Virus record (IMG/VR): IMGVR_UViG_3300027836_000009
Location: 28,114 to 92,113 of that record
From: a virus
Reading direction: 5' to 3' (one strand)
DNA: 64,000 bases
The notes below the pieces were generated by a model. The model ran no database searches, was not told where the DNA came from, and was given only the letters and a program-made list of their open reading frames with translations. A program made the translations under genes and the position numbers. Shown here one piece after another: positions 18,026-39,600 of the stretch (position 1 is its first letter; each line of letters starts with the position of its first letter).

Positions 18026-18292
18026 ATGGAATATAAAAAAGGAAAATATTTAACTAGAGAAAGTTATTATGATGTTATGCATCACCAGTTTGATGACCTG
18101 AAAAATAACGGTTTTGACTGGAGGGATAAAATGATGACAAATTCAGTGTCAGGATATCTTTTAAGCGATCCTAAACGATTAACGATAATTAAAAAGTTTA
18201 CAGAAATGATGGTGTATATCATGGATTGCGCAAGTCAAATCAAGAAAGCTTTTAATTATACGGTAAATAAAAACTACAAGCACTTAAATTAA
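18026..18292 (+). CDS. Small hypothetical baseplate-region protein
   Basis: 88-aa ORF coupled to the next gene (taatg). Confidence 0.65.
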   Translation: MEYKKGKYLTRESYYDVMHHQFDDLKNNGFDWRDKMMTNSVSGYLLSDPKRLTIIKKFTEMMVYIMDCASQIKKAFNYTVNKNYKHLN

Positions 18293-21200
18293 TGTTACTA
18301 ACGAATCGATTTAAGCTTTTTAATAAGCAAGGATATAACCTTAACCCGGACTATACAAGTCCTATAGGCGTAATTATAAACGATCCTGAAGGTATAGGTT
18401 ACGGAGCTGTGATTAATGCTTACACAAACCCAAGTGGTGAAATTACTTACGTAGAAATTTTAAGTGGTGGTAGCGATTATTCAACAGATACATACTTTGA
18501 ATTTTTTGATGAATTTACAGGTTCAAGATTTGTCACTAGCACTAGCGATATAACATTAAGTGTCACCGGTGAAATCTTATCATTTATAATTCCTATAAGT
18601 TCAAACAATAAAGGTTTTACATATCCGTCTACAACATTTTTTGTTAACGAATTCTTAGAGCCTGTTTCAACTGGACTTATAGCAACGGATCACATTTTCG
18701 TTATTGAGAATGTTTTTGATTCTGACGGTAGAGAAACATATACTAAACCTAGAGTTGAAGAATACGGTCCGTTTAACATTGCTTCGTATAGCAGCAATGG
18801 TCTTACAGCAAATATCAAAATTGAAACATTTGCTATAACAGGATCAGTTCTTGGTGGGAATCTTAATAGGATAGTTGGAATACCTGCATTATTGATACCT
18901 AACTTAAAAGTAGGTATGTATCTTATTGGTACTGGAATTCCAACAAACACAAAGATTACTGAAATAAACACAACGTATAATTACATAACTGTTTCAAATA
19001 ATCTTGTATTAACTGGTGCTTATTCGTTTACTTGTTATGAACCACATAATTTAAGAAAAGGAAATAAGATACGTATTTTTGATACATCATCGCCAACTCT
19101 TTTAGATGGGGAACAAGTTGTAACTGGTGTAACAATTACTGACATTTATTTTGCCAGTACTCAAACTATATCAACGACTGTAACATCAACTACTCAGTTT
19201 GGTGTTATTCCTGTTTATAGTGCGTACTTAACACCTAGTAGTGATTCTGAGTTTTTCTTATTTGATGTTTCTTATAATGTAGATTACCCAACAATTAATA
19301 AAAGAAAACAAGTTTACTTTCAATTAAATAATGCTTCGTTAGCAAGCCCCGCGGATTCAATTCCATCAGGAACTAACACAATTTATCAAAGAACAGTAAA
19401 CGAATACATTCATAAAGAATCGCTGCAGTTTAATATCGGACTTCAATCAGACGTTGAAGGCGTGTACACAGCACAAATTATGATTGACGATATTACATAT
19501 CCTACACCTAAGAAAATATTTGTAGGACTGTATGAAGGTGAAACAATACCTGAAGATGAACGATTAGGTTCATTGCTTGAAAACTTTGGTCGCGATGTTG
19601 ACATGGAGGAAGAACTTATTATGCGTGATTCTGATGTCAATGAAGATCGTGTAGATAATAAGTTGTTAAACGAGAAAAGAAAAGAGATGTTACTTGAAGG
19701 AGATAACATCTGGCCTTATGTAGGTTCTTATCGTGGTTTGGTTAACATCGTTAACTGGTTTGGCTATTATGATATTCGTATTAAAGAATATTGGTTAAAT
19801 GTAAATATTGAAGACGAGTACTATGGTAAGTATCGTCAAATGGAAATTCCTTTTCAGCTTAAAGATAAAGCAAAGGAAAGCGAAATGATATCTTTACTTC
19901 CAAGTAGCCACTATAAGAAGACAAATAAATTTGGACTGTATTATGATATTGTTAGAAATAGTGGGGAATTTGACGAATTTGGTGTACCTGTTACAGAAGA
20001 TGCGTTTGCTTATACAAACGAGGAAGTTTTAATAAAACTTTTTGCATTAAAAAGATACTTAAAAAATAAATTCTTACCTCTTAATACAAGAATCGTTGAT
20101 ATTACAGGCGAAGGTGTTTATTATGAAAGATACGCAGTAAACAGTTGGTACGATCCTAACGTTTATTTAAACATTGAATTAACTCGTGATATTGATTTTA
20201 AAACAAATTCACCAGTTCAAATAATTGATGCAAGGCCTTTTGATAATAATGATGGGATGACAAGTCCCGATATGAATACTCTTGTGTCAAATTACTACAA
20301 CCAATTTAAAATTTCAGATGCATTTATTGATAACCCAGGTGGACCATACTATGGTGTTATACCTCTTGTTTCATTTGTAGGAAATTCTGTTAATCAGCCT
20401 CGAGGCATTGTTAAAATGAAAGGCAATGTAGCATCTATAACGTTTGCTTCTGTTACAGGAACTGGCTATTTAGCTGGAGACGTTATAACATTAGCAGGAG
20501 GCTCTTATATAAATCCTATACGTTTAACAGTAACAAATGTTAACGCAAATGGCGGTGTCATTGATGCTGATATTTTAGCAGGTCCTGACCAAGGATCTCT
20601 TTATGCTTCATTACCACCAACTTTTTACCAAGCACTTGTATTAAGACCAAGTGGTACAACTTTTTTTGTTCCTAACGCAACTGGGTTTAATTGTCTTGCT
20701 ACTGACATCCCGTTAATTGCTGAAGATATTTATTTCTACGATCGTTTTGACAGCGGCGAAACATTTTCAACATTGCCTACCGCAGTTTTCTCGCCAGCAA
20801 TAGGCGGTATATCTGCATTATTAGATGTAACTACTGTTCCTGGAACACCTATTGGTTATTTTACCGATACTGATACAGTAGATCCTTGGGTTGATGCTCC
20901 AGGTATTCCTGTGGGTGGTCCTCTTAATTTGTCAACATCTTTTGATGTTACATGGGATGATATGCAATACGTATGGAAAGATTTAAGCGGTGCGTCTGAC
21001 GCGTCTTTTAAGGCATGGGTAGATGGTCAGCTTCAAGCAATTGAGATTCTTAACCCAGGAACTGACTATGCTTATGCACCAGATATATTTGTATCAGGAG
21101 GAGGAGGGTTTGGCGGGACAGCTGATTCTTCAATTATTAACGGCAAGATTAAGATACTTGAATATGAAATACTAACTGTTAGTAACTCAGTAGGTATTAA

Positions 21201-24200
21201 TGACTTAATAACTGTCACGCCTGCATTACCTGTAGCTGGCTTATATCAAGTAAGTATTAATAAAATTGTTAAAAGCCCTAATGTACCTGACGGTACAATG
21301 ACAAGCATAGTTAATCAGCCGCTTGATGAAATTGAATTATCTCTATACGATGGTTCGGCAATTACAACAGCGTTAGCGCCCGGTGATAAAATTTACATAC
21401 ACGAAGGTATAAATGTTTTAACAAGTGGTACTTATTTAGAATCTCCAACAGTATCAGCAAATGGCGGTAGAGGTGATTCTTACACTTGGGATAAAATGGG
21501 AAGATACGATATGTATCAAATGGCATGGAGAATTTCTTTGACTGGTCCTGAAAATCCTAATCAACAGTTTAACTATTATACTGATATAAAGCCTATAGAT
21601 GAACTTATAAATCATACTGTATTGTTACCTTATGAAGGTGTTTACGCAGTAGAAATGGTGATATATGATACAGATAACAATTTCTTAATTAAAAGAAAAG
21701 ATATAACTGTGACAATGCCATATGCAAACTTTTCGTTTGTTGCAAGATTTGTTACTGATTGTGTTGACACGTGGGATGATTTAGCTCAAGTACCTACTCC
21801 GGTGTTTTCGCAAACGCCAGGTCAATTAAACCCACCAGACAATGAAGGACCTCTTTATGATTGGGATCATGCAACTGGTCGTTGGGTAAATCCAGTGTTT
21901 AACCCAACAACATGGGATGATTCAGAAATCACATGGAATCATTTAGAAGGAGGACCTTTATCTGTATTTAATGATTATAATTTCCCATTAGAAAATCCTT
22001 TAGAAGTGATCCAAATCTCTGCAGAAGATAATCTTGAATACTATGTTTTATCATATAAAGATTCAACAACAAATCCTGCTGTAGTTAACCCAACGATATC
22101 TGTCTTTGGGCAAAGACCATATCCAAAAATTGAACCTTTAATAAATCCTAATGATTGGATTTTTATTAGAAGAGATGATGTTACATATCAATTAGAAGTG
22201 TTATACACAGATTATTCTGTGGCTAATGAAACTAAAATTGAATTAACTACAACTCCGCCATTAGCGTTTACACAAAATCCAACTACGTGGGAAGTTCTTA
22301 GAGAAATAGGCGGCACTATTGTATTAAAAGGAAATCAAATATACGATCCTATCACAAATCCTACAGGTATTGAAATTGGAAAGTACATTAGATTAATTGG
22401 TGTTGACGATGTACCAAAACAAAAAAGAGTAGGAATTGTTGGAAAAGATAATTACGCAGGAAATCCTAATTACATAGTTTTAAATGGTGATGTTAACAAT
22501 TACACAAAAGGTGGCGAAATTGGAAAGATTTATAAAATACGTAATTACGATTCAGCAAATGGCAATCTTAATTGGAATTCTGTAGAATCTACGTCAGCTT
22601 GGGTAGTAAGACCAGGAATAACTGATAATGTTGAAAAAAATAAATATGTAGGTAAACTTTATATTAATAGTTCGATTGAAGTAGGGTGTTTACCTGCGGT
22701 CCCATCATCTGAAATAAGACCAGGGTTTACAAACATTATTATTTTTGTTCAACTTGATGGCAAAATTATTTATGAACAAAGATTAAGAACTTTACATACG
22801 TTCTTTGACACTAGTAACACTGGTGTTATTTATGATGTATGGAACGGAGCTGGAGTAAATTATAATGGAATTCATGTAATTGACATTTCTACAGTTGACG
22901 GCGGTGAATTATTTAATTTAAACGCGCAGCTTGCCGATTGGTTTACAGCTGGTGCTTCAATTTGGCTGGAGTATGAATATAATGAATTTCCAACTCGTAC
23001 TTATTTAGGTTTAGGATCTGCTGGTGTACCAGAAGTTTATATGGACTTTAATATGTTCCCACCATCAGGCGAATTTATAAGTGCAGACCTAAGTTCATTC
23101 CCTGCGTCATCATTACCTTTTACAGGTTGGTATTATGATCATGGCATAGCAACTGGTGATTACAGTTTATACGTAGTAAACACAGGTACTTGGAGAAATG
23201 GATTAGGCACAATTATAACTGTTGATGATTCAGCTTCTGAATTGCTTAGAAGTTCATCGAGTTTTACCGCATATCAATATGACTTTGATACTGATAATTC
23301 AGAAAAGTATATTGGTTCATTAACTAAAACATGGGAAAATTCTCAACTTATTAATTGGACTGAAGCATGTAACCAATCATGGGATACATATGATTATCAA
23401 GATAACTTAGGTTGTAATTTTAACTTAAGCAAAATTGCGCAAAACGGCGGAATACAAATGAATAACGATATTAGTTTCTTATTCACTGGAATTGTAGGTG
23501 GTATGTCACCGGCACAGCAATGGTCACAAGCACTTTATGAATTAAGAAAAACTGATAACCCATCACTTTCAAGATTTAGTTATCAACTTAATAGCGTTTC
23601 AGATATGAAATTTATATTAGGAAGAGTTGATACATACACGGATCCTACAAAGATATTTGATTACCAAACTTCTGGTCCAACCCCAGTTGTAGGAGATGTC
23701 ATTGTTGCTGAAAACGTCGGACCTGCTCAAGATATTGTTAATGTAACATCTGATTTAGAATTAGCAAATCCTATACCTAAAAAGGTTGCTTTTACAGCAA
23801 CGGCTACTGCTGGTGATTATTCAATTAAGAATATTACAGGCTTAATGGAATCTGAAATTTATATAGGAGATACAATCACAGGTCCTGGATTACCCGTTAC
23901 GCCAAGTACTGGAGCAACAGTTTTAGAAATATATGCTTATGATGGTGTTGTTAGAACTTTAAGATTATCTGAACCTGCGTCAGTAAATGCAACATGGAAT
24001 ACTTATTACTTAGAATGGGTAACGCCTGCAAACAGTTTATTAGGTTTACAACATTTATTGGAAAACGGAACTTTTTTAATTGATGCATTTGCGAATACGC
24101 CAAGTGTTGACCAATTAGGATGGTTAATTGGACAAAATGGTATTGAATTCTATAATGAAGTAACAAGATCAAACGATCCTATTTCACATACATATCCTAT

Positions 24201-24747
24201 TAAAAATCTTTATCACAATGTAGGCTATGGAATCGGTAAAGTTGGTGGTTTCTTAACGGGGATGAAAGAACTTGTAATTAATGAAAGATCATTACAAGTT
24301 TATTTTTATGAAGGCATAAATCCAAATGCTGGTGAACCTGGATGGTATCCTGCAGCTTCGTTAGCGCCTGCTTATTCATTTTTTAATGACCCAGCTTTTA
24401 GTAATGTTTTAGAAGCTGAAACACAATCTAATCGTTTACCTTATGAATCAGCAATAGGCGGATCTTGGAGATGGGAAGATTCAATTATAGGAACGCTACC
24501 TGCAAAAATACCACAAGGCACAAGCGTTTTACTTACACCGGATGCAAGTAAAATAGCAGGAAAAACAAAATTTGGTTGGAAGATATATGAAGATTCAAAT
24601 CTTCTTGTCGAAACAACTGACCCAACTATCTTATGGGAATTTTCATACCCGGGTAAGTTCACTGTTGAATTAACCATAGAAGATACAAACGGTAATGTAA
24701 GAATAGATACGAAAAAAGATTTCTTTGAAGTTTATGGCGAAAACTAA
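18292..24747 (+). CDS. Large baseplate wedge/structural protein (gp7-like) with a C-terminal PKD-like domain
   Basis: 2151 aa following gp6; GEITYVEILSGGSDY-type repeats, YVGSYRGLVNIVNWFGY, and C-terminal FSYPGKFTVELTIEDTNGN. Confidence 0.65.
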   Translation: MLLTNRFKLFNKQGYNLNPDYTSPIGVIINDPEGIGYGAVINAYTNPSGEITYVEILSGGSDYSTDTYFEFFDEFTGSRFVTSTSDITLSVTGEILSFIIPISSNNKGFTYPSTTFFVNEFLEPVSTGLIATDHIFVIENVFDSDGRETYTKPRVEEYGPFNIASYSSNGLTANIKIETFAITGSVLGGNLNRIVGIPALLIPNLKVGMYLIGTGIPTNTKITEINTTYNYITVSNNLVLTGAYSFTCYEPHNLRKGNKIRIFDTSSPTLLDGEQVVTGVTITDIYFASTQTISTTVTSTTQFGVIPVYSAYLTPSSDSEFFLFDVSYNVDYPTINKRKQVYFQLNNASLASPADSIPSGTNTIYQRTVNEYIHKESLQFNIGLQSDVEGVYTAQIMIDDITYPTPKKIFVGLYEGETIPEDERLGSLLENFGRDVDMEEELIMRDSDVNEDRVDNKLLNEKRKEMLLEGDNIWPYVGSYRGLVNIVNWFGYYDIRIKEYWLNVNIEDEYYGKYRQMEIPFQLKDKAKESEMISLLPSSHYKKTNKFGLYYDIVRNSGEFDEFGVPVTEDAFAYTNEEVLIKLFALKRYLKNKFLPLNTRIVDITGEGVYYERYAVNSWYDPNVYLNIELTRDIDFKTNSPVQIIDARPFDNNDGMTSPDMNTLVSNYYNQFKISDAFIDNPGGPYYGVIPLVSFVGNSVNQPRGIVKMKGNVASITFASVTGTGYLAGDVITLAGGSYINPIRLTVTNVNANGGVIDADILAGPDQGSLYASLPPTFYQALVLRPSGTTFFVPNATGFNCLATDIPLIAEDIYFYDRFDSGETFSTLPTAVFSPAIGGISALLDVTTVPGTPIGYFTDTDTVDPWVDAPGIPVGGPLNLSTSFDVTWDDMQYVWKDLSGASDASFKAWVDGQLQAIEILNPGTDYAYAPDIFVSGGGGFGGTADSSIINGKIKILEYEILTVSNSVGINDLITVTPALPVAGLYQVSINKIVKSPNVPDGTMTSIVNQPLDEIELSLYDGSAITTALAPGDKIYIHEGINVLTSGTYLESPTVSANGGRGDSYTWDKMGRYDMYQMAWRISLTGPENPNQQFNYYTDIKPIDELINHTVLLPYEGVYAVEMVIYDTDNNFLIKRKDITVTMPYANFSFVARFVTDCVDTWDDLAQVPTPVFSQTPGQLNPPDNEGPLYDWDHATGRWVNPVFNPTTWDDSEITWNHLEGGPLSVFNDYNFPLENPLEVIQISAEDNLEYYVLSYKDSTTNPAVVNPTISVFGQRPYPKIEPLINPNDWIFIRRDDVTYQLEVLYTDYSVANETKIELTTTPPLAFTQNPTTWEVLREIGGTIVLKGNQIYDPITNPTGIEIGKYIRLIGVDDVPKQKRVGIVGKDNYAGNPNYIVLNGDVNNYTKGGEIGKIYKIRNYDSANGNLNWNSVESTSAWVVRPGITDNVEKNKYVGKLYINSSIEVGCLPAVPSSEIRPGFTNIIIFVQLDGKIIYEQRLRTLHTFFDTSNTGVIYDVWNGAGVNYNGIHVIDISTVDGGELFNLNAQLADWFTAGASIWLEYEYNEFPTRTYLGLGSAGVPEVYMDFNMFPPSGEFISADLSSFPASSLPFTGWYYDHGIATGDYSLYVVNTGTWRNGLGTIITVDDSASELLRSSSSFTAYQYDFDTDNSEKYIGSLTKTWENSQLINWTEACNQSWDTYDYQDNLGCNFNLSKIAQNGGIQMNNDISFLFTGIVGGMSPAQQWSQALYELRKTDNPSLSRFSYQLNSVSDMKFILGRVDTYTDPTKIFDYQTSGPTPVVGDVIVAENVGPAQDIVNVTSDLELANPIPKKVAFTATATAGDYSIKNITGLMESEIYIGDTITGPGLPVTPSTGATVLEIYAYDGVVRTLRLSEPASVNATWNTYYLEWVTPANSLLGLQHLLENGTFLIDAFANTPSVDQLGWLIGQNGIEFYNEVTRSNDPISHTYPIKNLYHNVGYGIGKVGGFLTGMKELVINERSLQVYFYEGINPNAGEPGWYPAASLAPAYSFFNDPAFSNVLEAETQSNRLPYESAIGGSWRWEDSIIGTLPAKIPQGTSVLLTPDASKIAGKTKFGWKIYEDSNLLVETTDPTILWEFSYPGKFTVELTIEDTNGNVRIDTKKDFFEVYGEN

Positions 24748-26146
24748 TAGATTAATAATTAATGTGCCTGACGCTTTATTAAAAGCTCAAGACCAATTTT
24801 TAAGAACACCTTCTATTGAAGATGGTAATAGTGATGATGTGCTACAAGGAAAGATATACACATCTGAGTTAACAATTAATGATAACTATAGTGTAAATTA
24901 TACATCAAGTATAACAAAAGTTGACTTTCAAAATATAAAGTCAGGAAATTTTTACATTGTTAACATACATTGTTCATATCTTGCGCAACAAGCAAGCGTA
25001 GCAGCAACAAATCCTGGACTATACGGGTCTGAATTAATAAAAACAGGTGAGCCGTTCACAATTATAAGTTCAACTGGTGATTATGTAAGAGGTGTTGTTT
25101 CGGAAATTGTTGAAATTATACCTACGCAATTACAATCTAATTATCCTGAAGTTTGGGAGTATAATTTTGAACTTTCATGTATTATTGCGCAAGGCAATCC
25201 TAAAGAAATCTCGCCAGGCCAGTGGTTTATTTGGAAAAGACAAATGTATCAAGATCATTCAACATTTAATGAAGCATATCCGCCAGTTAATTTAACTGCG
25301 TCTTTTAATTCAACGACAAAAGAAATCTTCTTTTATTGGGATGATGTTAATCAATCAAGTAGAACTTACAGGCTACAGCTAAGAGACCCATCAGATAGTA
25401 TTACCCCTTACATATATAAAACACAAGTTCATGGCCCGCTATCAAATAGCGATACTTCGTTAAAAGCTTTTGTTAATAATGGAAATGTACAAACAATTAA
25501 AATAGTTGAGCCGGGCGTAGGTTTAAATTCCAATCGTTCTTTAATAATTAAAGGAGTTGGAACAGGCGCAGTTTGGGCAACTCGTCTTGATAATAAAGGA
25601 GCATTAATGATAAACACGTTTGATGTTTGTGCCATATCTGGTTCTGCAAATCCTTCATACCTTGAACTTGGTTTATTTGCAAGAAAGACACGTCCTGAAT
25701 ATGGCGGCACATATCCGCTACCTACAATTAATTCATACATTGAAGGTTTACCGCCTTTAGGCACAACAACAAATTTTTATGTGCATTCTATATTATATTC
25801 AGGCAGACAATTTGGAATTGAGGTTCGCGATGCTGATACAGGATTGGGGGTAGACATTACACAAGAATGGTATGATGAAGTTCTTAAATCTGAAATCAAA
25901 ACACATGATGGTGTATATAAAATACAAAACGGATCAGGATATAATTACAGAACATTGGCTAGTGTAAAAACTATACCTAATGGCGTTCGTGCTTATTGGG
26001 ATCCCGTTTTTGGAGTACCTACCAATTCAGCTCCGTTTAATTATTCAACAAATAAACTCTGGGCTTGGTCAGTATCCGCAACATATGATGAGATAAATAA
26101 ACTATACACAGAATGGACAGCAGAAGAATACATAAACCTAGCATAA
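24734..26146 (+). CDS. Structural protein (baseplate/fibre) with FN3-like segments
   Basis: PPVNLTAS...FYWDD and WAWSVSA...EW motifs; TIKIVEPGVG repeat. Start revised to ATG 24734. Confidence 0.55.
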   Translation: MAKTNRLIINVPDALLKAQDQFLRTPSIEDGNSDDVLQGKIYTSELTINDNYSVNYTSSITKVDFQNIKSGNFYIVNIHCSYLAQQASVAATNPGLYGSELIKTGEPFTIISSTGDYVRGVVSEIVEIIPTQLQSNYPEVWEYNFELSCIIAQGNPKEISPGQWFIWKRQMYQDHSTFNEAYPPVNLTASFNSTTKEIFFYWDDVNQSSRTYRLQLRDPSDSITPYIYKTQVHGPLSNSDTSLKAFVNNGNVQTIKIVEPGVGLNSNRSLIIKGVGTGAVWATRLDNKGALMINTFDVCAISGSANPSYLELGLFARKTRPEYGGTYPLPTINSYIEGLPPLGTTTNFYVHSILYSGRQFGIEVRDADTGLGVDITQEWYDEVLKSEIKTHDGVYKIQNGSGYNYRTLASVKTIPNGVRAYWDPVFGVPTNSAPFNYSTNKLWAWSVSATYDEINKLYTEWTAEEYINLA

Positions 26147-26700
26147 ACGAAATTTCAATAAAAGGGAAACGATCTGAAAAGCTTGCTATATTTGACTTAG
26201 ATGATACGCTCATCATTTCACAAGCGAAGATACAGGTCATAGATCCTAAATCGGGGAGGGTTCTTAAATCCCTTACACCGGAACAATTTAACCATTATGT
26301 ACATGATCACAATCACGCATTATCATTTACTGAATTTGAGGATGCGGAAATTTTGAGAAGATCTACATTTATAACAGAGATATTGGAAAAGTTATTAAAT
26401 TTTTACACCAGCGGAGTACATGTCTCAATTGTAACAGCAAGATCTAATACAAAACTGATTCGTGATTTTTTCTTAGAAAAAGGAATAAACATTCACCCGG
26501 ATTTGGTGTTTGCCGTAAATGATCCCAGGTATAATTTTAAAGGTAATGTTGCCGAAAAGAAAAAGCAAGCAATACACGGGCTCATAGAATACGGTTATAA
26601 AGATTTAGTTTTCTTTGACGACAACGATGACAATCTCCGATTAGCAAAAGAAATTGAAAAGGAGAAAGATGTCAAAGTTGAAACTGTCAAAGTTGGTTGA
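26113..26700 (+). CDS. HAD-superfamily phosphatase
   Basis: Motif I IFDLDDT, motif II IVTAR, motif III K, motif IV FFDDNDDN. Confidence 0.85.
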   Translation: MDSRRIHKPSINEISIKGKRSEKLAIFDLDDTLIISQAKIQVIDPKSGRVLKSLTPEQFNHYVHDHNHALSFTEFEDAEILRRSTFITEILEKLLNFYTSGVHVSIVTARSNTKLIRDFFLEKGINIHPDLVFAVNDPRYNFKGNVAEKKKQAIHGLIEYGYKDLVFFDDNDDNLRLAKEIEKEKDVKVETVKVG

Positions 26701-26740: not shown

Positions 26741-27529
26741 ATGGCAAGACCTAAAAATAAAGCCAAGACAGATGAATACTTTGATGAAGTATTTCCACTT
26801 GGATATACATCTTCATCACAAACATCAAACAAGTTTAATCTTGATAAGATTACGGTTGATTTGAAATGTAAAAATCCAAACCAAAAAACTTTTATTAACT
26901 TAATCAGTGATAACAAAATTACAATCGCTGCTGGCCCTGCAGGAACAGGGAAAACATATCTTGCTTGCGCACAAGCATTGAAAATGTTAAAGTCAGATCC
27001 AAAATTTAAAAGAATAATACTTGTAAAAAGTGTAACGGTTTTAGAAGGCGAAGAAATAGGATTCCTAAAAGGAGATATGAAAGAAAAAATGTATCCTTTT
27101 ACAATTTCTTTTCTTGATAACTTTCACAAACTTATTGGAGAAGGCATAACACAAATCATGCTTGACATGGGACTTATTCAAGTTCTACCATTAGCTTATA
27201 TTCGTGGTCGTTCAATTGACAACGCAATCATAATCGTTGACGAAGCTCAAAACATTACTAAAAAGAATATGAGGTCTACATTGACCCGTATCGGTACTGA
27301 TTCTATAATGATCATTACAGGTGATACTAAACAAATTGATATGAAGAATCATCAGATGTCTTCACTCGAATTGGTTGTTCACTTATTTGCCGATAAGCCT
27401 AATATAGGAGTATTGGAATTTGATAAAAATGATATCGTTAGGGATCCTATCGTTATGTTAATCGAACAAACTTTTGATGATTGGGAAGAATCCCAAACAA
27501 CTACACATCCTAAAAAGGATATTTCGTAA
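26741..27529 (+). CDS. phoH: PhoH-like ATPase
   Basis: GPAGTGKT Walker A, IGFLKG, LAYIRGRS, IIVDEAQN, TGDTKQID and DIVR. Confidence 0.95.
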   Translation: MARPKNKAKTDEYFDEVFPLGYTSSSQTSNKFNLDKITVDLKCKNPNQKTFINLISDNKITIAAGPAGTGKTYLACAQALKMLKSDPKFKRIILVKSVTVLEGEEIGFLKGDMKEKMYPFTISFLDNFHKLIGEGITQIMLDMGLIQVLPLAYIRGRSIDNAIIIVDEAQNITKKNMRSTLTRIGTDSIMIITGDTKQIDMKNHQMSSLELVVHLFADKPNIGVLEFDKNDIVRDPIVMLIEQTFDDWEESQTTTHPKKDIS

Positions 27530-27962
27530 TATAACCAATTTTTGAATTAAACCAATGTTCGCCGTATGAAACAAATAACTGTTCTTCGGCGGATATTGGT
27601 TTTATTGTTTTTATACCAATAAGATTAAGTTCGTAGTCAGCAATAAACTGACAATTATTATCATCTTTATGATTATACAGAGCCACCCATCCCATTGGGA
27701 ATCCACCGTCTGCTTGCCAGTTCACAGTGTATTGGTCAAGTTTTAAATCTCCGTTTGGAATTCCTTCAGCTTGACAAGACCAAATTGCTATTTCCATTAA
27801 CTGTCGTGGATAAACAACAACAGGAGCTATTTCAATAATAACTCCGTCGTTGATGTTTTCTTTTGTAAAAATCCCCCAGCCGCCTATTTGTGGAACTGAC
27901 TGAATTTCTAATCTCGAATCTATAAAAGGTTTATAATTCGAGTCCTGAAGATTTTTTTGCAT
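27510..27962 (-). CDS. SET-domain protein lysine methyltransferase
   Basis: GWGIFTKENI, YNHKDDNNC and KPISAEEQLFVSYG motifs. Confidence 0.85.
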   Translation of the reverse strand: MQKNLQDSNYKPFIDSRLEIQSVPQIGGWGIFTKENINDGVIIEIAPVVVYPRQLMEIAIWSCQAEGIPNGDLKLDQYTVNWQADGGFPMGWVALYNHKDDNNCQFIADYELNLIGIKTIKPISAEEQLFVSYGEHWFNSKIGYITKYPF

Positions 27963-28221
27963 TACAAGTACTTTTTAAATTTTCAGGAAAATCTGGTACT
28001 TGAGAATAAACAAACTCAGGTACTTTCCCACATTTTTTACAAATGACAACATCCATAGGTAGATATTCTTCTTTGCCACTTGGACTCAATAATGCTGGTA
28101 ATCTTTTAAATATAGATACAGATTCAAATAGCTGTGGTTCCTCATCACATCCTACCCATTCTAATGTTCGTGGATCGACTCTCATCTGTCCTAATCCATC
28201 TTCTTTTCCTAGATTCATCAT
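27931..28221 (-). CDS. Small hypothetical protein, possible degenerate zinc ribbon
   Basis: VGCD...CKKCG with the LSPSGKE motif; overlaps the SET gene start. Confidence 0.65.
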   Translation of the reverse strand: MMNLGKEDGLGQMRVDPRTLEWVGCDEEPQLFESVSIFKRLPALLSPSGKEEYLPMDVVICKKCGKVPEFVYSQVPDFPENLKSTCNAKKSSGLEL

Positions 28222-28312
28222 TCTTTCTTTTCTTATGTTTCTACTGTTGTTTACTATCTTAGTCTACCTACTTCAATCTATCTATCCTTCCACCTGACTA
28301 ACCGTATAGTTT

Positions 28313-28376
28313 TTATACATAGTTTGTAAATAGTTCTGTCTAATATGAACTAATTAAAGAAAAATGTATATAAAAA
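28313..28376. promoter_or_regulatory. Divergent pair of GAACTAWTT-n-TATA promoters
   Basis: Minus strand gaactattt...atgtataaaaa (28336 to 28313); plus strand gaactaatt...atgtatataaaaa (28347-28376). Confidence 0.5.
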
Positions 28377-28394
28377 TTAAAATAAATTAAAATT

Positions 28395-29117
28395 ATGTTT
28401 AGTGAAAGTAAATTAAAAACAATGCTGTTCTTTGATATTGAAACAGCTGGTAAGTATTCAAACTACGAAGAATTTGAAAACGCAGATCCTGCAGGTGCTG
28501 AGATGTGGCATAAGAAAATGAATCGTCAAAAAATTGAAGACTACAAAAAAGGTTATGAACAAAACGTTGCTCTTTATCCAGAGTTTGGACAAATCGTAAC
28601 AATGTCGTATGGCTTATGGAATCCTGATAAATATGCAGGAGGGAACGGTTATAATGTAGGTTCAATAACATTAGATGACGGCGATACTGAATATGATTCT
28701 TTAAAAAGAATTGCGATGGTATTTCATAATGCATCAGCAAACGGTTTAGTTCCTACCGGCTGGAATATCAAAAACTTTGACGTTCCGTGGATTGTTCGTA
28801 AATTACATAATGTAGGATTACAAGTTCCATCTTGCTTAAGTACTTATGATAAAAAGCCTTGGGAAGTTGGTGTTATTGATTTAAAAGAAATGTGGAAAAG
28901 TAATTCAAGTCTTGATGTAACTTTTGAAGAAGCTGCTTATAGTATGGGAATCCCAACTCCTAAAGATGACATTGATGGAAGTCAAGTACATGAAACATAT
29001 CATAATTATGGATTGGATAGAATTCAAACTTATTGTGAAAAAGACGTTAAGACAATGATTCATCTTGTTACTGCTATTTCAAAAATTTACAACCCAGGAG
29101 TATTAAAAACTGTTTAA
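28395..29117 (+). CDS. PolB-like 3'-5' exonuclease (DEDDy)
   Basis: ExoI FFDIET, ExoII GWNIKNFDVPW, ExoIII YCEKDV. Confidence 0.9.
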   Translation: MFSESKLKTMLFFDIETAGKYSNYEEFENADPAGAEMWHKKMNRQKIEDYKKGYEQNVALYPEFGQIVTMSYGLWNPDKYAGGNGYNVGSITLDDGDTEYDSLKRIAMVFHNASANGLVPTGWNIKNFDVPWIVRKLHNVGLQVPSCLSTYDKKPWEVGVIDLKEMWKSNSSLDVTFEEAAYSMGIPTPKDDIDGSQVHETYHNYGLDRIQTYCEKDVKTMIHLVTAISKIYNPGVLKTV

Positions 29118-29118
29118 T

Positions 29119-29946
29119 ATGCCTGAATTAGCAGAAGTAAAAATAATGTCCGACTTCATTAATAATGTTGTCGGCATTGACCCATTTTTTGAAGTTGTTG
29201 AAAAATCAGAAGTTTCAAAAGTAAAAACTGATCTTGATGTTTTTGAAGGAGGAATCTTTGCTATTTCTGCTCAATCACGTGGAAAGGAATTAATGCTTAA
29301 TCTTGAACTTGTTGGCGGTGACATTAATGGCGTTTTAATGAAAAGACTATCTTGTTCAATGGGTATGAGCGGTAATTGGATTTACATAAAGAAAGATAGT
29401 GCAAAATTAGAAACAGCTTTAAAACATGCGCATTTAAGATTCATAAGTACTCGAGGCAATTACTTAATTCTCTATGACGTAAGAAGATTCGCAAAGTGGA
29501 AATGGGCAGATACTTGGAATAAAGGCAGAGGTAACTGTCCGCTAATTGAATATAATGATTTTAATCTTGTTTTAAGAACAAACATATTTAAACATAAAGA
29601 TTTTAATAAACCTATTTGCGAAGTTTTAATGAATCAGAAATGGTTTAACGGTGTTGGTAATTATTTAAGAGCTGAAATACTTTATCGGTTAAACATTAAT
29701 CCTTTTCAGTCCGCCAACCAATTAACAGATCAAGATGTTGATCTTTTATGTACAATTACACATCTTTGTGTTAGAGATGCATATCAATTAGGTGGTGGCC
29801 AATTAAAAGATTGGTATAATCCTAATGGTATAAGTGGTGATACATTTAAAGAATGGGTTATGTGTTATGGCAAATTAAGTTCAATGGTTGATAAAACAGG
29901 CCGCAAGTTTTGGTATGATCCAAAATGGGAATCTTACCGAGTTTAG
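29119..29946 (+). CDS. nei: Fpg/Nei-family DNA glycosylase/AP lyase, NEIL1-like with a zincless finger
   Basis: N-terminal MPE, RGKEL, GMSG, DVRRF and H2TH FNGVGNYLRAEILY; no CxxC zinc finger. Confidence 0.92.
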   Translation: MPELAEVKIMSDFINNVVGIDPFFEVVEKSEVSKVKTDLDVFEGGIFAISAQSRGKELMLNLELVGGDINGVLMKRLSCSMGMSGNWIYIKKDSAKLETALKHAHLRFISTRGNYLILYDVRRFAKWKWADTWNKGRGNCPLIEYNDFNLVLRTNIFKHKDFNKPICEVLMNQKWFNGVGNYLRAEILYRLNINPFQSANQLTDQDVDLLCTITHLCVRDAYQLGGGQLKDWYNPNGISGDTFKEWVMCYGKLSSMVDKTGRKFWYDPKWESYRV

Positions 29947-32989: not shown

Positions 32990-35900
32990 ATGAGCACACC
33001 TAATACGACTGAAAATAGTCTTGGCACAATATTAGCTAATTTTATTCGCTTACAAAATAATTCATTAGATACACTGCAGGCAATTCAAACTGCAACAACT
33101 TCTAATGCGGATACTGTAGCTATAACTGTTTCAAACAGCGATGGAACAACTACGTCATACACAATCCCTTCGTTTGGGTATCTTAAAGGCAGTATTGATA
33201 GAATTGATAACACAATTCAAAAACTAACAGGATTTGACGGTAGCGATGCTTATATAAGAATGCCTGATGGAACATTTAAAAGAATTTACCAAGCAGCACT
33301 TATAAAGAATCCTGCACCAATTGGTAATCTTACAGTTCCGTCAAAATTCATTACTGAAAATAATTATTTCTTTGAGAGTATGTACACACCTGCTCTTAAA
33401 GTTAGTTTTGATGTAACGCCTTACATACCACAACAAGAATCAAAAATTTATGCTCAACGATTAATTCTTAATCTTGACGATAAAACGAAACAAGATTATT
33501 TTAACAATAACTTAAAAGGTAAAAATAATCTTGATTATGTGCAGCTTCTTGTTGGCTTACAAAAACAAAACATTAATTATTTTACAGACGATGCTGTTCT
33601 TGACATGCCTCTTTCAATTGTAAGATATGCCGGTGATTTTTTAGTTGTAAACATACAAGATAGAGAAGTTACAAATCCTGATGGTAGTACAGGTAAAAAG
33701 AGATGGTACTTATTTAATAAGTTATCATATACCGATAATCTTTCGTTAACAAAAGATACGCTTTCATTAAAAATAGGTGATCGCCTTGTTAAAGGCGAAA
33801 CGATGTATGAAATAGTAGAAATTGATAATTCAACAAAATACGTTAGAGTTACAAGATTAAATGGATACGACCCTTTTATCGTTGGTGAACCTGTAGGATT
33901 TTATTCTGAAACATTCTCGCCTAAAATTGCTAATGTAGGAATCGGCTTTAACGAATATAATGTTATTTTCTTTAGAACTGTTAATGATGAAGAAAACTTA
34001 ATCTCTACAATTTATTCACCAGGCGTTGCTTTTGCTACTAATGACTTAAGTACTGAAACTGGTGCAGGAACAATGATAATGAAAGATTTTTATCAAAAGA
34101 ATGTTCTTGATTTTGGTAACATTTTATTATCACAAGCAAAAGAAAATAAAATATCAGCAGTTGATGGTATTACACCGATAGCTCCTGAGTTAGATCCGTC
34201 AAACTTTAAAGTTGTTACAATTAACGATCATAAACTTGACCAAGCTGAGATTGACTCAATCAGAAAGAAACAATCTGATAAGGTTACACTTGAGTCTGAG
34301 ATTACTGAATTAGAAAAATCAATTGATAAAAAGAAAGAAGAACTAAATTCACGTAAGTTTAATTCGGATACTGAACGTCGTGGAGTTAAAAATGAATTAG
34401 ATAATTTAATTCGCGAGAAAAGCACAAAATCTTCCCTCTATGCATCTATTGTAAAAGAACTTGCGGTTATTGCTGAACAAAAACCGGCAGCATTAGACAC
34501 ACCTAAATTTCGTATTAGAGGGTTCTTTAATATGCCTGACCCACAATATAGTGAGAAAACAGGTAACCAAAGTGTAATGCAATTTAGAATCTATTGGAGA
34601 TACGTTAGGCCTGATGGAAGTCAAAATAATGTTCAGCAGTTTGACTTTATTGATGCAAATGGACAAATTAAAAAAGGTACTTACTCAAATTTAAATGAAT
34701 ACACATCAGCTATACGAGCAAAAATATACGATGTAGGCACAGGTAAATACGTATGGGCTTCAGAAGATATTGAAAATCCCGATGCTGTAAATATTAACCA
34801 AATTGATATTCCTATTAGTAAAGGTGAAAAAGTTGAGTTTTATGTAATTTCAGTTTCTGAAGCAGGCTGGCCTGATAACCCTCTTCTTTCAAATTCTTCT
34901 AATGTTATATCAATTGACTTTCCTACTGATCTTGCTACTGAAGATGAAGCAACTATTGCGCTTCAACAAGCAAATGCAGAAGCTGTGCGAGTTCAACTTA
35001 ATAATGATTTAGCTGCTAAAGGAATTGATACCCATTTAGAAAGTTCATTCTTTGTCGGCCAAAAATATTATGCTCACAATGCTGAAACAGTTTCTTCAGG
35101 ATATTATACGTCTGAAGGCAATGTTATTACACTTTTACAAAAACTTCAAGAATATGAAATAAGAATTCTTGAATTAGAAAATAGAGCTAATCGTGTTGCT
35201 GGTATTCTTAGCATATATCTGATTGATCCTGATAAGAAAACTAAAACAGCTATTACACGAGGAAGTGTTATTCAACTTTTTGCTGGCTATTACTTAGATT
35301 ATGTAACATTATTACCTGTTAATGAGAGACGTGGCGCAATTGTAAATAAGACATACCAAATTTCATTAGAAAACGCTGAGGCAACACCTTTACAATTAAT
35401 TTCAAGATTCCCAGGTGGAATTGGTGCTGCTTTGCCTACTACATTAACAACAGCAAATATTCCTGTGTTCCCTTCAGTACAACCGTTTGTGTCTCCGTAT
35501 AATACAACGACTTTATTCCCAACTACTAGTGATAGCGATTATAATAACTTTAGATTATATGACCAAACGCCTATAGTTCAAACTTCTATACAAAAAGATG
35601 ATACAAATAACGGTAACAAGTACGCAACAGCGTTTTATCAAAGCGGCCAATCAAAAGGGCAATACATTTATAGCAGATTTAAAGATGTAGGACTTGTTAA
35701 CAATTTATATGAAAATCCAATAACAGGAAGATATTATGTTCCACCAACGCCAACTACGTCAGGTGCCGTTAACGCGGAAACATGGATATGGAATGGAACA
35801 TATTCATTGACAAATGTCCCTAATGGCGGTTTAGCTGGTGAAATTAGCGATTTTTGTATACATACAGATCACCCAGCAATAAACCCAGGGTTTCCAGGAA

Positions 35901-36637
35901 CTGCGCTTACATTCAACAATTTACAATTACCTTCTGTTAATATTGACCCAACGACTGGGTATCCTATTGCTCCTGAGGCTGCATCAACATTCAGACATGC
36001 TAAAAATGTTGAACTTGAAGCAAGTACAGTAAATGGATATCGTCCACAATTAGGATATTACCAGGCATTCTTAGACAATGTTAAAGTTGCTGTGTTGCCT
36101 ATACCAGCGCCTCCTGCGTCACCAACTTATAAATATGAAAATGTTTATCAGCCAGTTTCTCTAAACGAATATCCTGATAAGTTTGGATTCGTATCAAACG
36201 ATAGATATTTAATAGGGAACAAAACTTGCGGATCTTATTTATTTTTAGGACCAAGCACATTTAATCAATTAAATGTAAACGGCATTGATGCTAGAGCTAC
36301 GCAAGAACTTAAAACCGGTGACACAAATGCAATTGTAATTCCTGTAGTTTTTCAATTTAGAATGGAAGATTATTGGGGTCCGTCAGGCGGGGCTGGCGCA
36401 GGTATCATAGGTGGATATAAAGGATCTACACCTCCAACTAATTTAACTTATGGTAGAAGAATAGGTCTTGACCTTTATGCACAAGATGAAGATACATTCT
36501 CTTTTGATATTCAAGTAAGCGCTACATATAAGAAAACTTCGTTAAGTCAAGTTATAGCAACAGCTTACCCAACATTTAACAAAGAAACTAAAAATATTGT
36601 TTATGATAAATACACTATCAAAACACTTATCTCATAA
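32990..36637 (+). CDS. Virion structural protein with a central coiled coil
   Basis: 1215 aa; coiled coil EIDSIRKKQSDK...; T/P-rich C-terminus. Confidence 0.6.
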   Translation: MSTPNTTENSLGTILANFIRLQNNSLDTLQAIQTATTSNADTVAITVSNSDGTTTSYTIPSFGYLKGSIDRIDNTIQKLTGFDGSDAYIRMPDGTFKRIYQAALIKNPAPIGNLTVPSKFITENNYFFESMYTPALKVSFDVTPYIPQQESKIYAQRLILNLDDKTKQDYFNNNLKGKNNLDYVQLLVGLQKQNINYFTDDAVLDMPLSIVRYAGDFLVVNIQDREVTNPDGSTGKKRWYLFNKLSYTDNLSLTKDTLSLKIGDRLVKGETMYEIVEIDNSTKYVRVTRLNGYDPFIVGEPVGFYSETFSPKIANVGIGFNEYNVIFFRTVNDEENLISTIYSPGVAFATNDLSTETGAGTMIMKDFYQKNVLDFGNILLSQAKENKISAVDGITPIAPELDPSNFKVVTINDHKLDQAEIDSIRKKQSDKVTLESEITELEKSIDKKKEELNSRKFNSDTERRGVKNELDNLIREKSTKSSLYASIVKELAVIAEQKPAALDTPKFRIRGFFNMPDPQYSEKTGNQSVMQFRIYWRYVRPDGSQNNVQQFDFIDANGQIKKGTYSNLNEYTSAIRAKIYDVGTGKYVWASEDIENPDAVNINQIDIPISKGEKVEFYVISVSEAGWPDNPLLSNSSNVISIDFPTDLATEDEATIALQQANAEAVRVQLNNDLAAKGIDTHLESSFFVGQKYYAHNAETVSSGYYTSEGNVITLLQKLQEYEIRILELENRANRVAGILSIYLIDPDKKTKTAITRGSVIQLFAGYYLDYVTLLPVNERRGAIVNKTYQISLENAEATPLQLISRFPGGIGAALPTTLTTANIPVFPSVQPFVSPYNTTTLFPTTSDSDYNNFRLYDQTPIVQTSIQKDDTNNGNKYATAFYQSGQSKGQYIYSRFKDVGLVNNLYENPITGRYYVPPTPTTSGAVNAETWIWNGTYSLTNVPNGGLAGEISDFCIHTDHPAINPGFPGTALTFNNLQLPSVNIDPTTGYPIAPEAASTFRHAKNVELEASTVNGYRPQLGYYQAFLDNVKVAVLPIPAPPASPTYKYENVYQPVSLNEYPDKFGFVSNDRYLIGNKTCGSYLFLGPSTFNQLNVNGIDARATQELKTGDTNAIVIPVVFQFRMEDYWGPSGGAGAGIIGGYKGSTPPTNLTYGRRIGLDLYAQDEDTFSFDIQVSATYKKTSLSQVIATAYPTFNKETKNIVYDKYTIKTLIS

Positions 36638-36640
36638 CCT

Positions 36641-39600
36641 ATGAGTACTCCAAACTTTTATAATATAAATTTTGAAAGAGAAGTAGTTGTTCAAGGAAAG
36701 AACACTACTTTTCTTTCTATTACAAGGAATGACGAAGAAATTGGTGCTGACCAAGATTTAGTTATCGTTCTTTATCCACAAAGAAATACATGGGAACAAT
36801 ATAAAAATGTTAGTGTAATTTCAAAAGGACAAGATAATACATATTATCCTGAAATTGTTTGGAAATTCCAATATACATCACCGCAGGAAATTTCTAAAGT
36901 AAATGACCCAAAATTTGAAAGAATCTTTAATGACTTAGAGGTTCTGAATTGGTATGATATAGATCCTAATTTAATTACAGCTGGAGGGGTGCCTCTTACA
37001 GTTATTGATTATAAGCCTGGCATAGGATTTTCTTTGAAGTCATTAAACAACCAATATTTTACGCCCCCAAATAATGTGATAAATCTAAACTTAGGTAAAA
37101 ACGATATAACTGATGCAGATAATTGGAAAATAAATGCCGGTGTTGTAAGTGAACAAATTAAAGCATTAGAAAATCAAATTTCACCCACATACTGGAAGCC
37201 ATTTGATAATTTACCTAACCCGTTTGACGGCACGACTCTTACTGTTGTATCTGATTATGGAAAATACACAGGATTCTTTAGTAGAAAAAATGCGTCTTGG
37301 ATAAGAATCCCTAAGGATAACACAAACGTAAATAATAATGGCGCAAGTATACGTATAGATTTTGACGGCAAAAAAAATAGTCATTTAAAACTTAACATAC
37401 TTGTTGCTAGGATGAGTAATTTAGCAGCCCAACCACAAGATTTAGTTTATGGTCACACTACTACTGGGGAATTTGGATGGAAAATTCAAGGTGCATCACA
37501 AGATGAATCCCGCGATTATCAAGAAGTACATTTCTTTGGCTATACTGAAGATTATGTTAAAACAAAAAGAGATAACACACCGGTTTCATATAAAATTGAA
37601 AATCCTATATACGATGACCAGGCTTCTTATGCGTTATTAAAAACTAACCCTAAAATTAGTGGTAACGTTAAACTTACAACAGATTCTAATGGTGATATTT
37701 GGCTAAACTCATTTGACGCAAATGATGAGCTTGCAAACTCATCATACAAAAAATATGCTATAAGTCCGTCTTCAACATACCAAAGAGATTTACATTACTT
37801 CTTTAAAAAAGGTAAAACACCAAGTAATATAGTATTTGAGCCTTACCAATTTGACAACCAATACTTAAATACAAAAAGAACATTTGAGCAACAATATGAT
37901 AACTTTTACAATTATGGCGTTGAACAATTAAGAAGTAAGTTGTATGATGAAGATTTTACTTTTTTAGCTCCTCTTTGGTTAAGAAAGGATGTACCAGATT
38001 TCTTTTTAATTTTTAGAATTGACGGACCTCTTAATATTGATTCTTACTTAAATAAAGGTAATGATGATAAGTTTAACAGTTTCTTTGCTGGAGCAAGACT
38101 GATAAAAACTTTTGATATGCGAAACTCATCTAAGCTAGGTTCGTATATTAGAAAAATTGTTAACGATCCTCGTTATCAAGAAAGACCAATTGAGGTTTCA
38201 TGGGAAACTGATGTTGCTACATATTGGAATGGTCTTTCATATAAAGATGGCACAATGACAGCAAAAGGTGAATTCTTATATGATTATTATAAACAAGATC
38301 GTCCTATTAAAGAATTTGAAGAATTTGTGACAAATGGCTTTGAACGTAATGGAATTATTAGTTCAAATTTATTAAACTTAGAATTTTTATTTGATGATGA
38401 CGAAGCTGATCTTTATAGCATTAATCGTTATTTTGGAATTTATGTAAACGAGAACCAACTTGCAGAATTTCAAATTGAGCCTTCAGTTTTAGGCAAGATA
38501 CAAGTTCCTTCACTATCAAGTCCAGATCCTTCAGTTTTACCTATTTATCAAACTCCACCACCTAAACCTGGTGTTGATGGCGAGCCTTATACTTTAAGAG
38601 AGTTTACACAAACTAATCCTGATGGTATACAGCTACCTATACATTATTATCATAATTCAGTTTTTACAAATAACACAACAAACATACCTGAGTACCAAGG
38701 AAACGTTATAGGCAAATTACCTTTGCCTGCAATGGTTGACGATCCTTTAAGATTCTTTTATGTAAAAGATAGAAATGATGTATTTAAAAGAGTTAATAAA
38801 TTAACTGAAGTTGATTATGGTGTACCAGGATCAAAAGATTATATTAGAGCAACACAATTACAGTTATTTGATAACGAAGAAAACATTAGTTCATATGGTG
38901 GTGTAACAAATATCACTTCTCAATTAAAAGCTGAACTACTTGACTCAGGCAAATCACAACTTGTTTTGGAATTATTTGACCAAGCAGGCACTGGTGTAAT
39001 TGCTGAGGATGAAGAATTTATTATAAATGTAGAAAATTATAATGACTATTCTTTTGACGATGACGTTAAAAAATATTATGTTCAAGTAACTGATACTGTT
39101 CTAGGTAATTATGTAAAAGTAAAATACTTTATAGGTGATTACCTTACTTCAACAACATCGTCTACTTACATTCAGCCTCCTGTGAATGATATTACACCGG
39201 TTGCTGTGGAAGATGCATCTGAATTGTTACTAGGCGACTTTATTTATATTATAGGTGGCGGTTATTACCAAATTACAGGTTTAAATACTGTTATTGCATT
39301 TAATAATATAGCACAAATTCAGCCAAAAGGACAACCTGTTTTTTCCTTAGGCTCAATTCAAACTAATACGGTGTCAGGTGCAACTCCTGGTATTACAATA
39401 TGTCCACAGTTATCAAATAGCGGAAATGGCATAGGAGCTAATTTTAATGTTACAGTTGATGGCACTGGTGCTGTTACAGTTGTTTCGTTAAATTTACCTG
39501 GCACGCAATACACATTATCAGATGTTATTACAATTGACCTAACTCCTATAGGCGGTTCTGGTACATTAACAATTTCACCAGCAACATTATTAGAGATAAC

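Follow-up and report, generated by a model that had tools for sequence, protein, structure and literature searches.

How a phage comes to carry a DNA glycosylase that resembles an animal repair enzyme, and what such a gene implies for the origin of that enzyme, is the question raised by the locus analyzed here. In a 2011 classification of the Fpg/Nei family, the NEIL1 subfamily was described as metazoan, with mimivirus Nei1 as its only viral relative (PMC3188539). In the present study, we analyzed a window of 64,000 nucleotides (the whole stretch of DNA considered below), which is part of a 92-kb IMG/VR record with a completeness of 32% as estimated by CheckV. The window was AT-rich, with 30-38% GC throughout, and nearly all of its genes lay on the plus strand. 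It encoded gp32, UvsW, a baseplate-J protein, PhoH, and several giant structural ORFs, which indicated that the DNA belongs to a large tailed phage, and the stretch was present in freshwater and lake metagenomes of many studies. According to the original prediction, which was made from the letters of the DNA, one ORF encodes a Nei-type glycosylase that is colinear with vertebrate NEIL1 and carries a zincless finger, and its presence in a phage bears on the origin of NEIL1. The ORF was found to be intact and to lie exactly where it had been placed (Table 1).

Table 1. Features of the glycosylase gene and of the neighboring genes in the window
Feature	Position	Strand	Basis
NEIL1-type Fpg/Nei DNA glycosylase/AP lyase (P0001), predicted; 275 aa, ATG start	29119..29946	+	phmmer, Pfam, AlphaFold2 (AF2), Foldseek
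N-terminal beta-sandwich catalytic domain, residues 1-127	29119..29499	+	PF01149, 42.1 bits (cut-off 25.5)
Helix-two-turns-helix (H2TH) motif, residues 158-229	29590..29805	+	PF06831, 45.5 bits (cut-off 34.7)
Zincless finger, residues 242-267, with Arg262	29842..29919	+	PF09292, AF2 strands, conservation
DEDD-type 3'-5' exonuclease (PolB-exo/RNase H-like), 240 aa	28395..29117	+	PF10108 (9e-10), PF13482 (7.8e-11)
HAD-superfamily phosphatase, 195 aa, DxDxT at residues 28-32	26113..26700	+	phrog_415, TIGR01681
PhoH-like ATPase, island member	26741..27529	+	PF02562 (6.7e-64); synteny
SET-domain protein, 150 aa, island member	27510..27962	-	PF00856 (9.1e-12); in 20 related loci
96-aa ORF conserved in the island	27931..28221	-	tblastn

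Sequence Identity of the Glycosylase

The predicted protein was compared with all PDB sequences using phmmer. The best matches were fifteen constructs of human NEIL1 (endonuclease VIII-like 1), with E-values from 2.8e-40 to 1e-38; the next-best were E. coli Fpg (1.3e-9) and mimivirus Nei1 (2.5e-9), and the matches to E. coli Nei (4e-3) and to NEIL2 and NEIL3 (about 1e-2) were marginal. In terms of score, the protein reached 141 bits to NEIL1, and no other family member of solved structure exceeded 41 bits. BLASTP, which the original prediction had proposed as a check, matched mammalian NEIL1 at 36% identity over 298 columns (E 1e-51). Structures of human NEIL1 are deposited as 1TDH, 5ITX, and 6LWx. 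It was observed that all of the motif pairs listed in the original prediction were present in the phmmer alignment to deposited human NEIL1. The phage/human pairs were VEKSEVS/VEKSSVS, ISAQSRGKEL/ISASARGKEL, GMSG, HAHLRF, DVRRFAKW/DIRRFGRW, WNKGRGNC/WQPGRGPC, QLGG, FKEWVMCYG/FRAWLRCYG, and DKTGRKFW/DRHGRTIW, and the long H2TH block KPICEVLMNQKWFNGVGNYLRAEILYRL of the phage protein also aligned to human NEIL1, so that the two proteins were colinear over the whole core.

The same protein was compared with the ordinary members of the superfamily. Bacterial Fpg/MutM and Nei, and the Fpg proteins of cultured phages, share with it the superfamily, the two-domain architecture, the N-terminal PE dyad, and the H2TH motif. 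However, these proteins carry a C4 zinc finger, which the phage protein lacks, and the Fpg/Nei outgroup proteins used below all end in CxxC...CxxC. Their identity to the phage protein, including that of the Fpg proteins of Bacillus phages G, SP-10, SP-15, and YungSlug, was only 22-31%. The NCBIfam equivalog scores were far under the respective cut-offs, with 95 versus 203 bits for TIGR00577 (fpg) and 46 versus 252 bits for PRK10445 (nei).

Mimivirus Nei1 (MvNei1, L315, with structures 3A42, 3A45, and 3VK7) matched the phage protein with about 40 bits, as against 141 bits for NEIL1. Mammalian NEIL1 itself matched MvNei1 with only 25.9 bits, over the H2TH alone. The bit scores of 141 and 25.9 indicated that the clade of phage and bacterial relatives described below is, by sequence, far closer to NEIL1 than MvNei1 is. 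Like the phage protein, MvNei1 is encoded by a virus, belongs to the Fpg/Nei family, and has a zincless finger (PMC3188539). A paper cited there as reference 72 calls it a viral NEIL1 ortholog in its title, and it is the only characterised protein of that designation.

Domain Architecture and Predicted Fold

The N-terminus of the protein reads MPELAEV, i.e., the Met-Pro-Glu start of the Fpg/Nei superfamily, and the catalytic domain carries Pro2, Glu3, Glu6, Lys56, Met83, Arg122, and Phe124. In pairwise alignments, Lys56 corresponded to NEIL1 Lys54, Met83/Arg122/Phe124 to the void-filling residues Met81/Arg118/Phe120, and Arg262 to Arg277. Among 121 aligned relatives, M1, P2, E3, and K56 were invariant, and E6, M83, R122, F124, N177, R184, R262, and W265 were conserved in at least 90%. 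The AlphaFold2 model, for which these 121 relatives served as the alignment, had a mean pLDDT of 96.8, and its top Foldseek matches in the PDB were all NEIL1, with TM scores of 0.83-0.87 over about 272 columns.

The C4 pattern (C-x2-C...C-x2-C) was absent from the glycosylase and from 93 of 93 full-length short relatives. The finger was modeled as a beta-hairpin with strands at residues 254-257 and 263-266 around the conserved R262, and its segment aligned to DRHGRTIW of NEIL1; the Neil1-DNA_bind profile PF09292 matched it with an E-value of 7e-4 and 19.7 bits, under the cut-off of 25. The missing C4 pattern, the modeled hairpin, and the conservation of R262 bore out the zincless finger of the original prediction. 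Overall, the analysis supported the reading of the gene, at the level of sequence and modeled fold, as a phage-borne, NEIL1-type, zincless-finger glycosylase that bears on the origin of NEIL1.

The phage protein and NEIL1 have the same colinear catalytic core, with Pro2/Glu3/Glu6, the Lys, and the Met/Arg/Phe triad, as well as the H2TH and an Arg-bearing zincless finger, but several differences were also found. NEIL1 has a disordered C-terminal interaction tail of roughly 100 aa, whereas the phage protein ends at residue 275, just past the finger; the animal NEIL1 forms are 345-590 aa long. A 21-residue segment of NEIL1 past the H2TH is missing from the phage protein in the BLASTP alignment. 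The lesion-recognition loop reads QLGGGQLKDWYNPNG in the phage protein and QLGGKGYGSESG in NEIL1; the phage loop is three residues longer, is differently composed, and has no equivalent of Lys/Arg242, which together with the Tyr244 region marks the NEIL1 loop, and its consensus among the 121 aligned relatives is LGGGxxxxWxNP. Given the 21-residue deletion and the lack of a tail, the substrate range and the partners of the phage protein may differ from those of NEIL1. Such compact, tail-less, zinc-free NEIL1 cores are on offer for structural and substrate studies.

Distribution among Phages, Bacteria, and Eukaryotes

A word-indexed search returned 1482 homologues, over 1400 of which were intact; more than 100 clusters were 50-87% identical to the glycosylase, all of them metagenomic. 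Many of these homologues are labeled 'endonuclease VIII-like 1' by the JGI pipeline. In an exhaustive HMMER search of 50%-identity representatives, 112 clusters were found at E < 1e-30, and short proteins (250-314 aa) formed about 70 clusters that outranked the first long match, which stood at about 1e-35; full-length short forms made up 93 of the 150 matches listed. The long matches were eukaryotic NEIL1 proteins from tuatara, amphioxus, limpet, crab, sea urchin, Hydra, and coral, together with the choanoflagellate Salpingoeca, the amoebozoan Planoprotostelium, and protist transcriptomes. With a single conserved peptide pattern, relatives were retrieved from at least 362 IMG/VR contigs. The more than 1400 intact homologues and the 362 IMG/VR contigs implied that the family is under purifying selection. 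In INPHARED, tblastn found no NEIL1-type gene in cultured phages, the matches being ordinary zinc-finger Fpg genes with at most 31% identity, and megablast of 20 kb of the window against cultured phages gave no match.

The family was also found in cellular bacteria. A scan of one genome per prokaryotic species, which relied on a single strict peptide pattern, yielded 11 loci, seven or eight of which were in Candidatus Poribacteria MAGs from independent studies. The genes in Candidatus Poribacteria and in one Neomarinimicrobiota MAG belong to the same zincless-finger clade, with 35-40% identity to the phage protein and a similar length; those of Poribacteria are chromosomal and cellular, unlike the phage gene. 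In the three Poribacteria MAGs searched, the NEIL1-type genes were the only PF01149 matches, and no canonical Fpg/Nei catalytic domain was found there. It was further observed that Poribacteria (L031-L034, L036, and L038-L040) have two paralogous NEIL1-type genes in two conserved contexts, and that one MAG has both. The first context contains sulfatases, an RlmL-like methyltransferase, and a YkuD transpeptidase, and the second contains a SAM hydroxide adenosyltransferase and a 320-aa PhoH. Those loci that had been assigned to Saprospirales and Flavobacteriaceae by binning paired with IMG/VR phage sequences in the trees described below, and the Saprospirales-binned locus has a phage-like gene context. 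The glycosylase is thus no singular case; it is one of hundreds, and many aquatic phages carry their own predicted gene for oxidative base-excision repair. Such a gene bears on the survival of phage genomes under sunlight and oxidants.

Phylogenetic Relationship with NEIL1

Three trees were constructed: a FastTree tree of 158 rows and two IQ-TREE trees under LG+C20 PMSF, with 99 and 56 rows. The outgroups were Fpg/Nei proteins from annotated records; NEIL2, NEIL3, MvNei1, plant and fungal Fpg, and actinobacterial Nei stood outside the trees and were compared through PDB E-values only. In all three trees, the zincless forms split from Fpg/Nei with a support of 96-98 (SH-aLRT 98 in the 99-row tree). 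The glycosylase was accordingly placed with NEIL1, apart from ordinary Fpg/Nei, as the original prediction had anticipated. The scores pointed the same way: for 117 of 117 phage and bacterial rows, the score to eukaryotic NEIL1 exceeded that to Fpg/Nei, with medians of 144 and 60 bits, respectively.

Eukaryotic NEIL1 was monophyletic (SH-aLRT 96-97), and all phage and bacterial forms, including the window protein, lay outside it. The eukaryotic clade comprised cnidarians, molluscs, crab, sea urchin, amphioxus, a choanoflagellate, an amoebozoan, and other protists. The likeness to NEIL1 that had been claimed was therefore upheld, but the word 'vertebrate' was too narrow, since NEIL1 is not specific to vertebrates and its eukaryotic clade spans cnidarians to an amoebozoan. 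The window protein fell in a phage clade with loci L002-L006 (support 97-98), apart from the eukaryotes. Forcing this clade together with animal NEIL1 cost 72.5 log units and was rejected by the AU test (p 0.0023). The monophyly of the eukaryotes and this test led us to reject, on phylogenetic grounds, a capture of the gene from an animal.

In the free trees, the eukaryotes branched from within the phage and bacterial forms, with weak support along the backbone (81-87). This nesting was considered as evidence for a phage donor and was rejected as such: when the phage and bacterial forms were held as one clade, the likelihood rose by 11.2 and 10.6 log units over that of the free tree (p-AU 0.62 and 0.76). 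The best-scoring trees thus show the two clades as sister groups and favor neither side as the gene donor. The original prediction had offered a phage or bacterial donor and a capture from a eukaryote as the two origins to be weighed. That the locus bears on the origin of NEIL1 held good; capture from an animal was rejected, and the best trees lent no support to a phage or bacterial donor. These results suggested that the phage/bacterial clade is sister to, or possibly paraphyletic around, eukaryotic NEIL1, and that the relationship is ancient and sister-like, with no recent animal capture. By these sequence comparisons, the clade is the nearest known kin of NEIL1, so that the origin of eukaryotic NEIL1 gains a concrete and testable sister group, namely a very diverse clade of mostly uncultured large phages plus Poribacteria.

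In the literature searched, the coverage of which was incomplete, no paper describing a NEIL1 clade of phages or bacteria was found. Automatic annotation already names such proteins; new here are the conserved exonuclease-glycosylase island described below, the chromosomal context in Poribacteria, and the AU tests.

Integrity of the Locus

The likeness to animal NEIL1 is striking for a phage, and it could in principle arise from eukaryotic contamination, from a chimeric assembly, or from a very recent capture from an animal genome. The GC content of the glycosylase gene was the same as that of its surroundings. The junction between the exonuclease and glycosylase genes was bridged by contigs of two independent studies (28290-29363 and 28743-29455), and a contig from the probable source run spanned the whole glycosylase gene plus both borders. 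A nine-gene order was common to the IMG/VR contigs of the first scan, and a five-gene core was kept in 20 contigs of different metagenomes. The bridging contigs and the conserved synteny excluded the misassembly against which the original prediction had asked for a check. Furthermore, the best identity of any phage or bacterial row to any eukaryote was 41%, and the monophyly of the eukaryotes and the AU test stand against a very recent capture as well. Refuted by the GC content, synteny, bridging contigs, identity, and tree results, an artefactual origin of any of these kinds is left with a negligible probability.

Conserved Island and Neighboring Genes

The glycosylase gene is part of an island with the order HAD phosphatase, PhoH, SET (opposite strand), 96-aa ORF (opposite strand), DEDD exonuclease, and glycosylase, followed by structural genes. 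The island was kept in 20 of the 102 loci examined, in which the glycosylase identity was at least 57%, corresponding to the phage lineage of the window. The stop codon of the exonuclease gene ends one base ahead of the glycosylase ATG (TAA-T-ATG), and the adjacency of the two genes is a further difference from NEIL1. The exonuclease matched phrog_25228 ('3'-5' exonuclease') at 5e-28, and no solved sequence relative of it was found. Of 102 related loci, 24 had the exonuclease adjoining the glycosylase, and the pair was seen in two arrangements. Since most related phage lineages had no exonuclease within 6 kb of the glycosylase, the linkage is recurrent but not universal.

The HAD gene was conserved in the island in the 20 loci. 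Its product matched phrog_415 ('polynucleotide kinase') at 1.3e-10 and TIGR01681 (HAD-IIIC) at 7.7e-8, the latter below its cut-off, and a PDB sequence search was empty. The AlphaFold2 model was of moderate quality (pLDDT 75.5), and Foldseek returned only weak, non-discriminating matches to capless HAD phosphatases, with the phosphatase of T4 Pnkp at rank 9-10. The protein is possibly a DNA 3'-phosphatase. The 96-aa ORF had no Pfam or PHROG match and was found by tblastn at 40-71% identity in 9 related loci of the first scan (L002-L009 and L011).

Other lineages showed other neighbors. In a second lineage, the order was UvdE, glycosylase, one further gene, and exonuclease. This repair cluster (L030:5074-7489, L014, L017, and L021) consists of a UvdE UV-damage endonuclease, the NEIL1-type glycosylase, and a PolB-exo-like exonuclease, and a FEN-type 5'-3' exonuclease was observed near it in L017 and L030. 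In some aquatic phages, UvdE and a 3'-5' exonuclease thus accompany the predicted repair gene. The largest of the other lineages (37 loci, among them L101:7013-8602 and L080:8603-10471) had genes for an SF2 helicase (ResIII/Helicase_C_2) and a GyrB-like topoisomerase subunit after the glycosylase gene.

The SET family is best known from eukaryotic lysine methyltransferases. A SET-domain methyltransferase within the conserved island, together with a lesion-recognition loop unlike that of NEIL1, would fit an enzyme that acts on DNA modification instead of damage. Such an enzyme would excise particular modified or unmodified pyrimidines, e.g., host-type bases or editing intermediates of hypermodified cytosines, and would serve host-DNA degradation, modification quality control, or counter-defence and not oxidative repair. 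The title of PMC5566547 reports activity of NEIL1 on 5-carboxylcytosine, which would agree with this role. However, the damage-recognition core residues are conserved, the family is the only Fpg/Nei member in the Poribacteria searched, where it lies in housekeeping contexts, and a UV-damage endonuclease lies beside the glycosylase in other phages. The Poribacteria contexts and the UvdE neighbors point to generic damage repair, and we consider a role in modification improbable.

The replication neighbors, namely gp32 and UvsW in the window and the helicase and topoisomerase in the largest other lineage, would be consistent with an enzyme that is mainly an AP lyase or acts at replication forks, handling abasic sites or unhooking crosslinks in single-stranded or forked DNA, as has been described for NEIL3 and mycobacterial Nei2, instead of serving as a broad base-excision glycosylase of duplex DNA. 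Nei2 offers a precedent, being described in the abstract of PMC11323726 as a single-stranded DNA AP lyase linked to a helicase. However, the sequence and the predicted fold of the phage protein are specifically NEIL1-like and not NEIL3- or Nei2-like, and the full void-filling triad for duplex DNA is conserved. An enzyme devoted mainly to abasic sites or forks is therefore an unlikely reading of the gene.

Proposed Role and Mechanism

Taking the family, conserved residues, gene linkage, and distribution together, we propose that the gene probably encodes an active, core-only, NEIL1-type bifunctional glycosylase/AP lyase for oxidative repair of phage DNA, the 3' ends left by which would be cleaned by the exonuclease and/or the HAD phosphatase. 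During infection of a freshwater host, the enzyme would remove bases that have become oxidised or ring-opened from the DNA of the phage itself. By analogy with the solved NEIL1 structures, the amine of Pro2 would attack C1' of the nucleotide with the flipped-out damaged base and form a Schiff base with the help of Glu3 and Lys56. As in NEIL1, Met83, Arg122, and Phe124 would fill the helix gap left by the flipped base, and the H2TH and Arg262 of the zincless finger would grip the lesion strand. Beta,delta-elimination would then produce a one-nucleotide gap with a 3'-phosphate. The blocked 3' end may be cleaned by the exonuclease, which is presumably translationally coupled to the glycosylase, by the island HAD phosphatase, or by both, and the replication enzymes of the phage would subsequently fill and seal the gap. 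End cleaning of this kind would resemble the established NEIL1-PNKP route of mammals.

A further proposal, which is put forward tentatively and which we think doubtful, has two parts. The phage/bacterial forms and NEIL1 would go back to one ancient inter-domain transfer, the simplest course being that an early eukaryote received the gene from a zincless-finger lineage of phages or bacteria, and the exonuclease, glycosylase, and HAD protein would form a self-contained base-excision pathway that works without an AP endonuclease. If this were true, such an AP-endonuclease-free phage pathway would be functionally parallel to the NEIL1-PNKP route of mammals.

Other Features of the Window

TATATA-type boxes ahead of the exonuclease gene (28367) and past the glycosylase gene (29953) were not enriched over shuffles, and their reading as promoters was dropped; scans for sigma-70 promoters and terminators were at chance level. 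In the intergenic stretch 28170-28437, before the exonuclease gene, the summed contig depth was 2-3 times higher in three runs, and loose contig ends recurred at 28290 and 28336. No repeat within the window accounts for the excess, and several co-occurring phage genomes or contexts may have a short element at 28170-28437 in common.

A 473-aa ORF (24725-26146) overlaps the start of the HAD gene; it had no Pfam or PHROG match, but related contigs contained it at 30-43% identity. Located among the structural genes, the ORF at 12224-13420 encodes a protein of 398 aa with two S1 RNA-binding domains (Pfam S1, 7e-21). The 1215-aa product of the ORF at 32990-36637 matched phrog_29329, a family of unknown function, with an E-value of 1e-147. 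The island itself is flanked by giant ORFs at 18292-24747 (2151 aa), 36641-44656 (2671 aa), and 44699-52258 (2519 aa).
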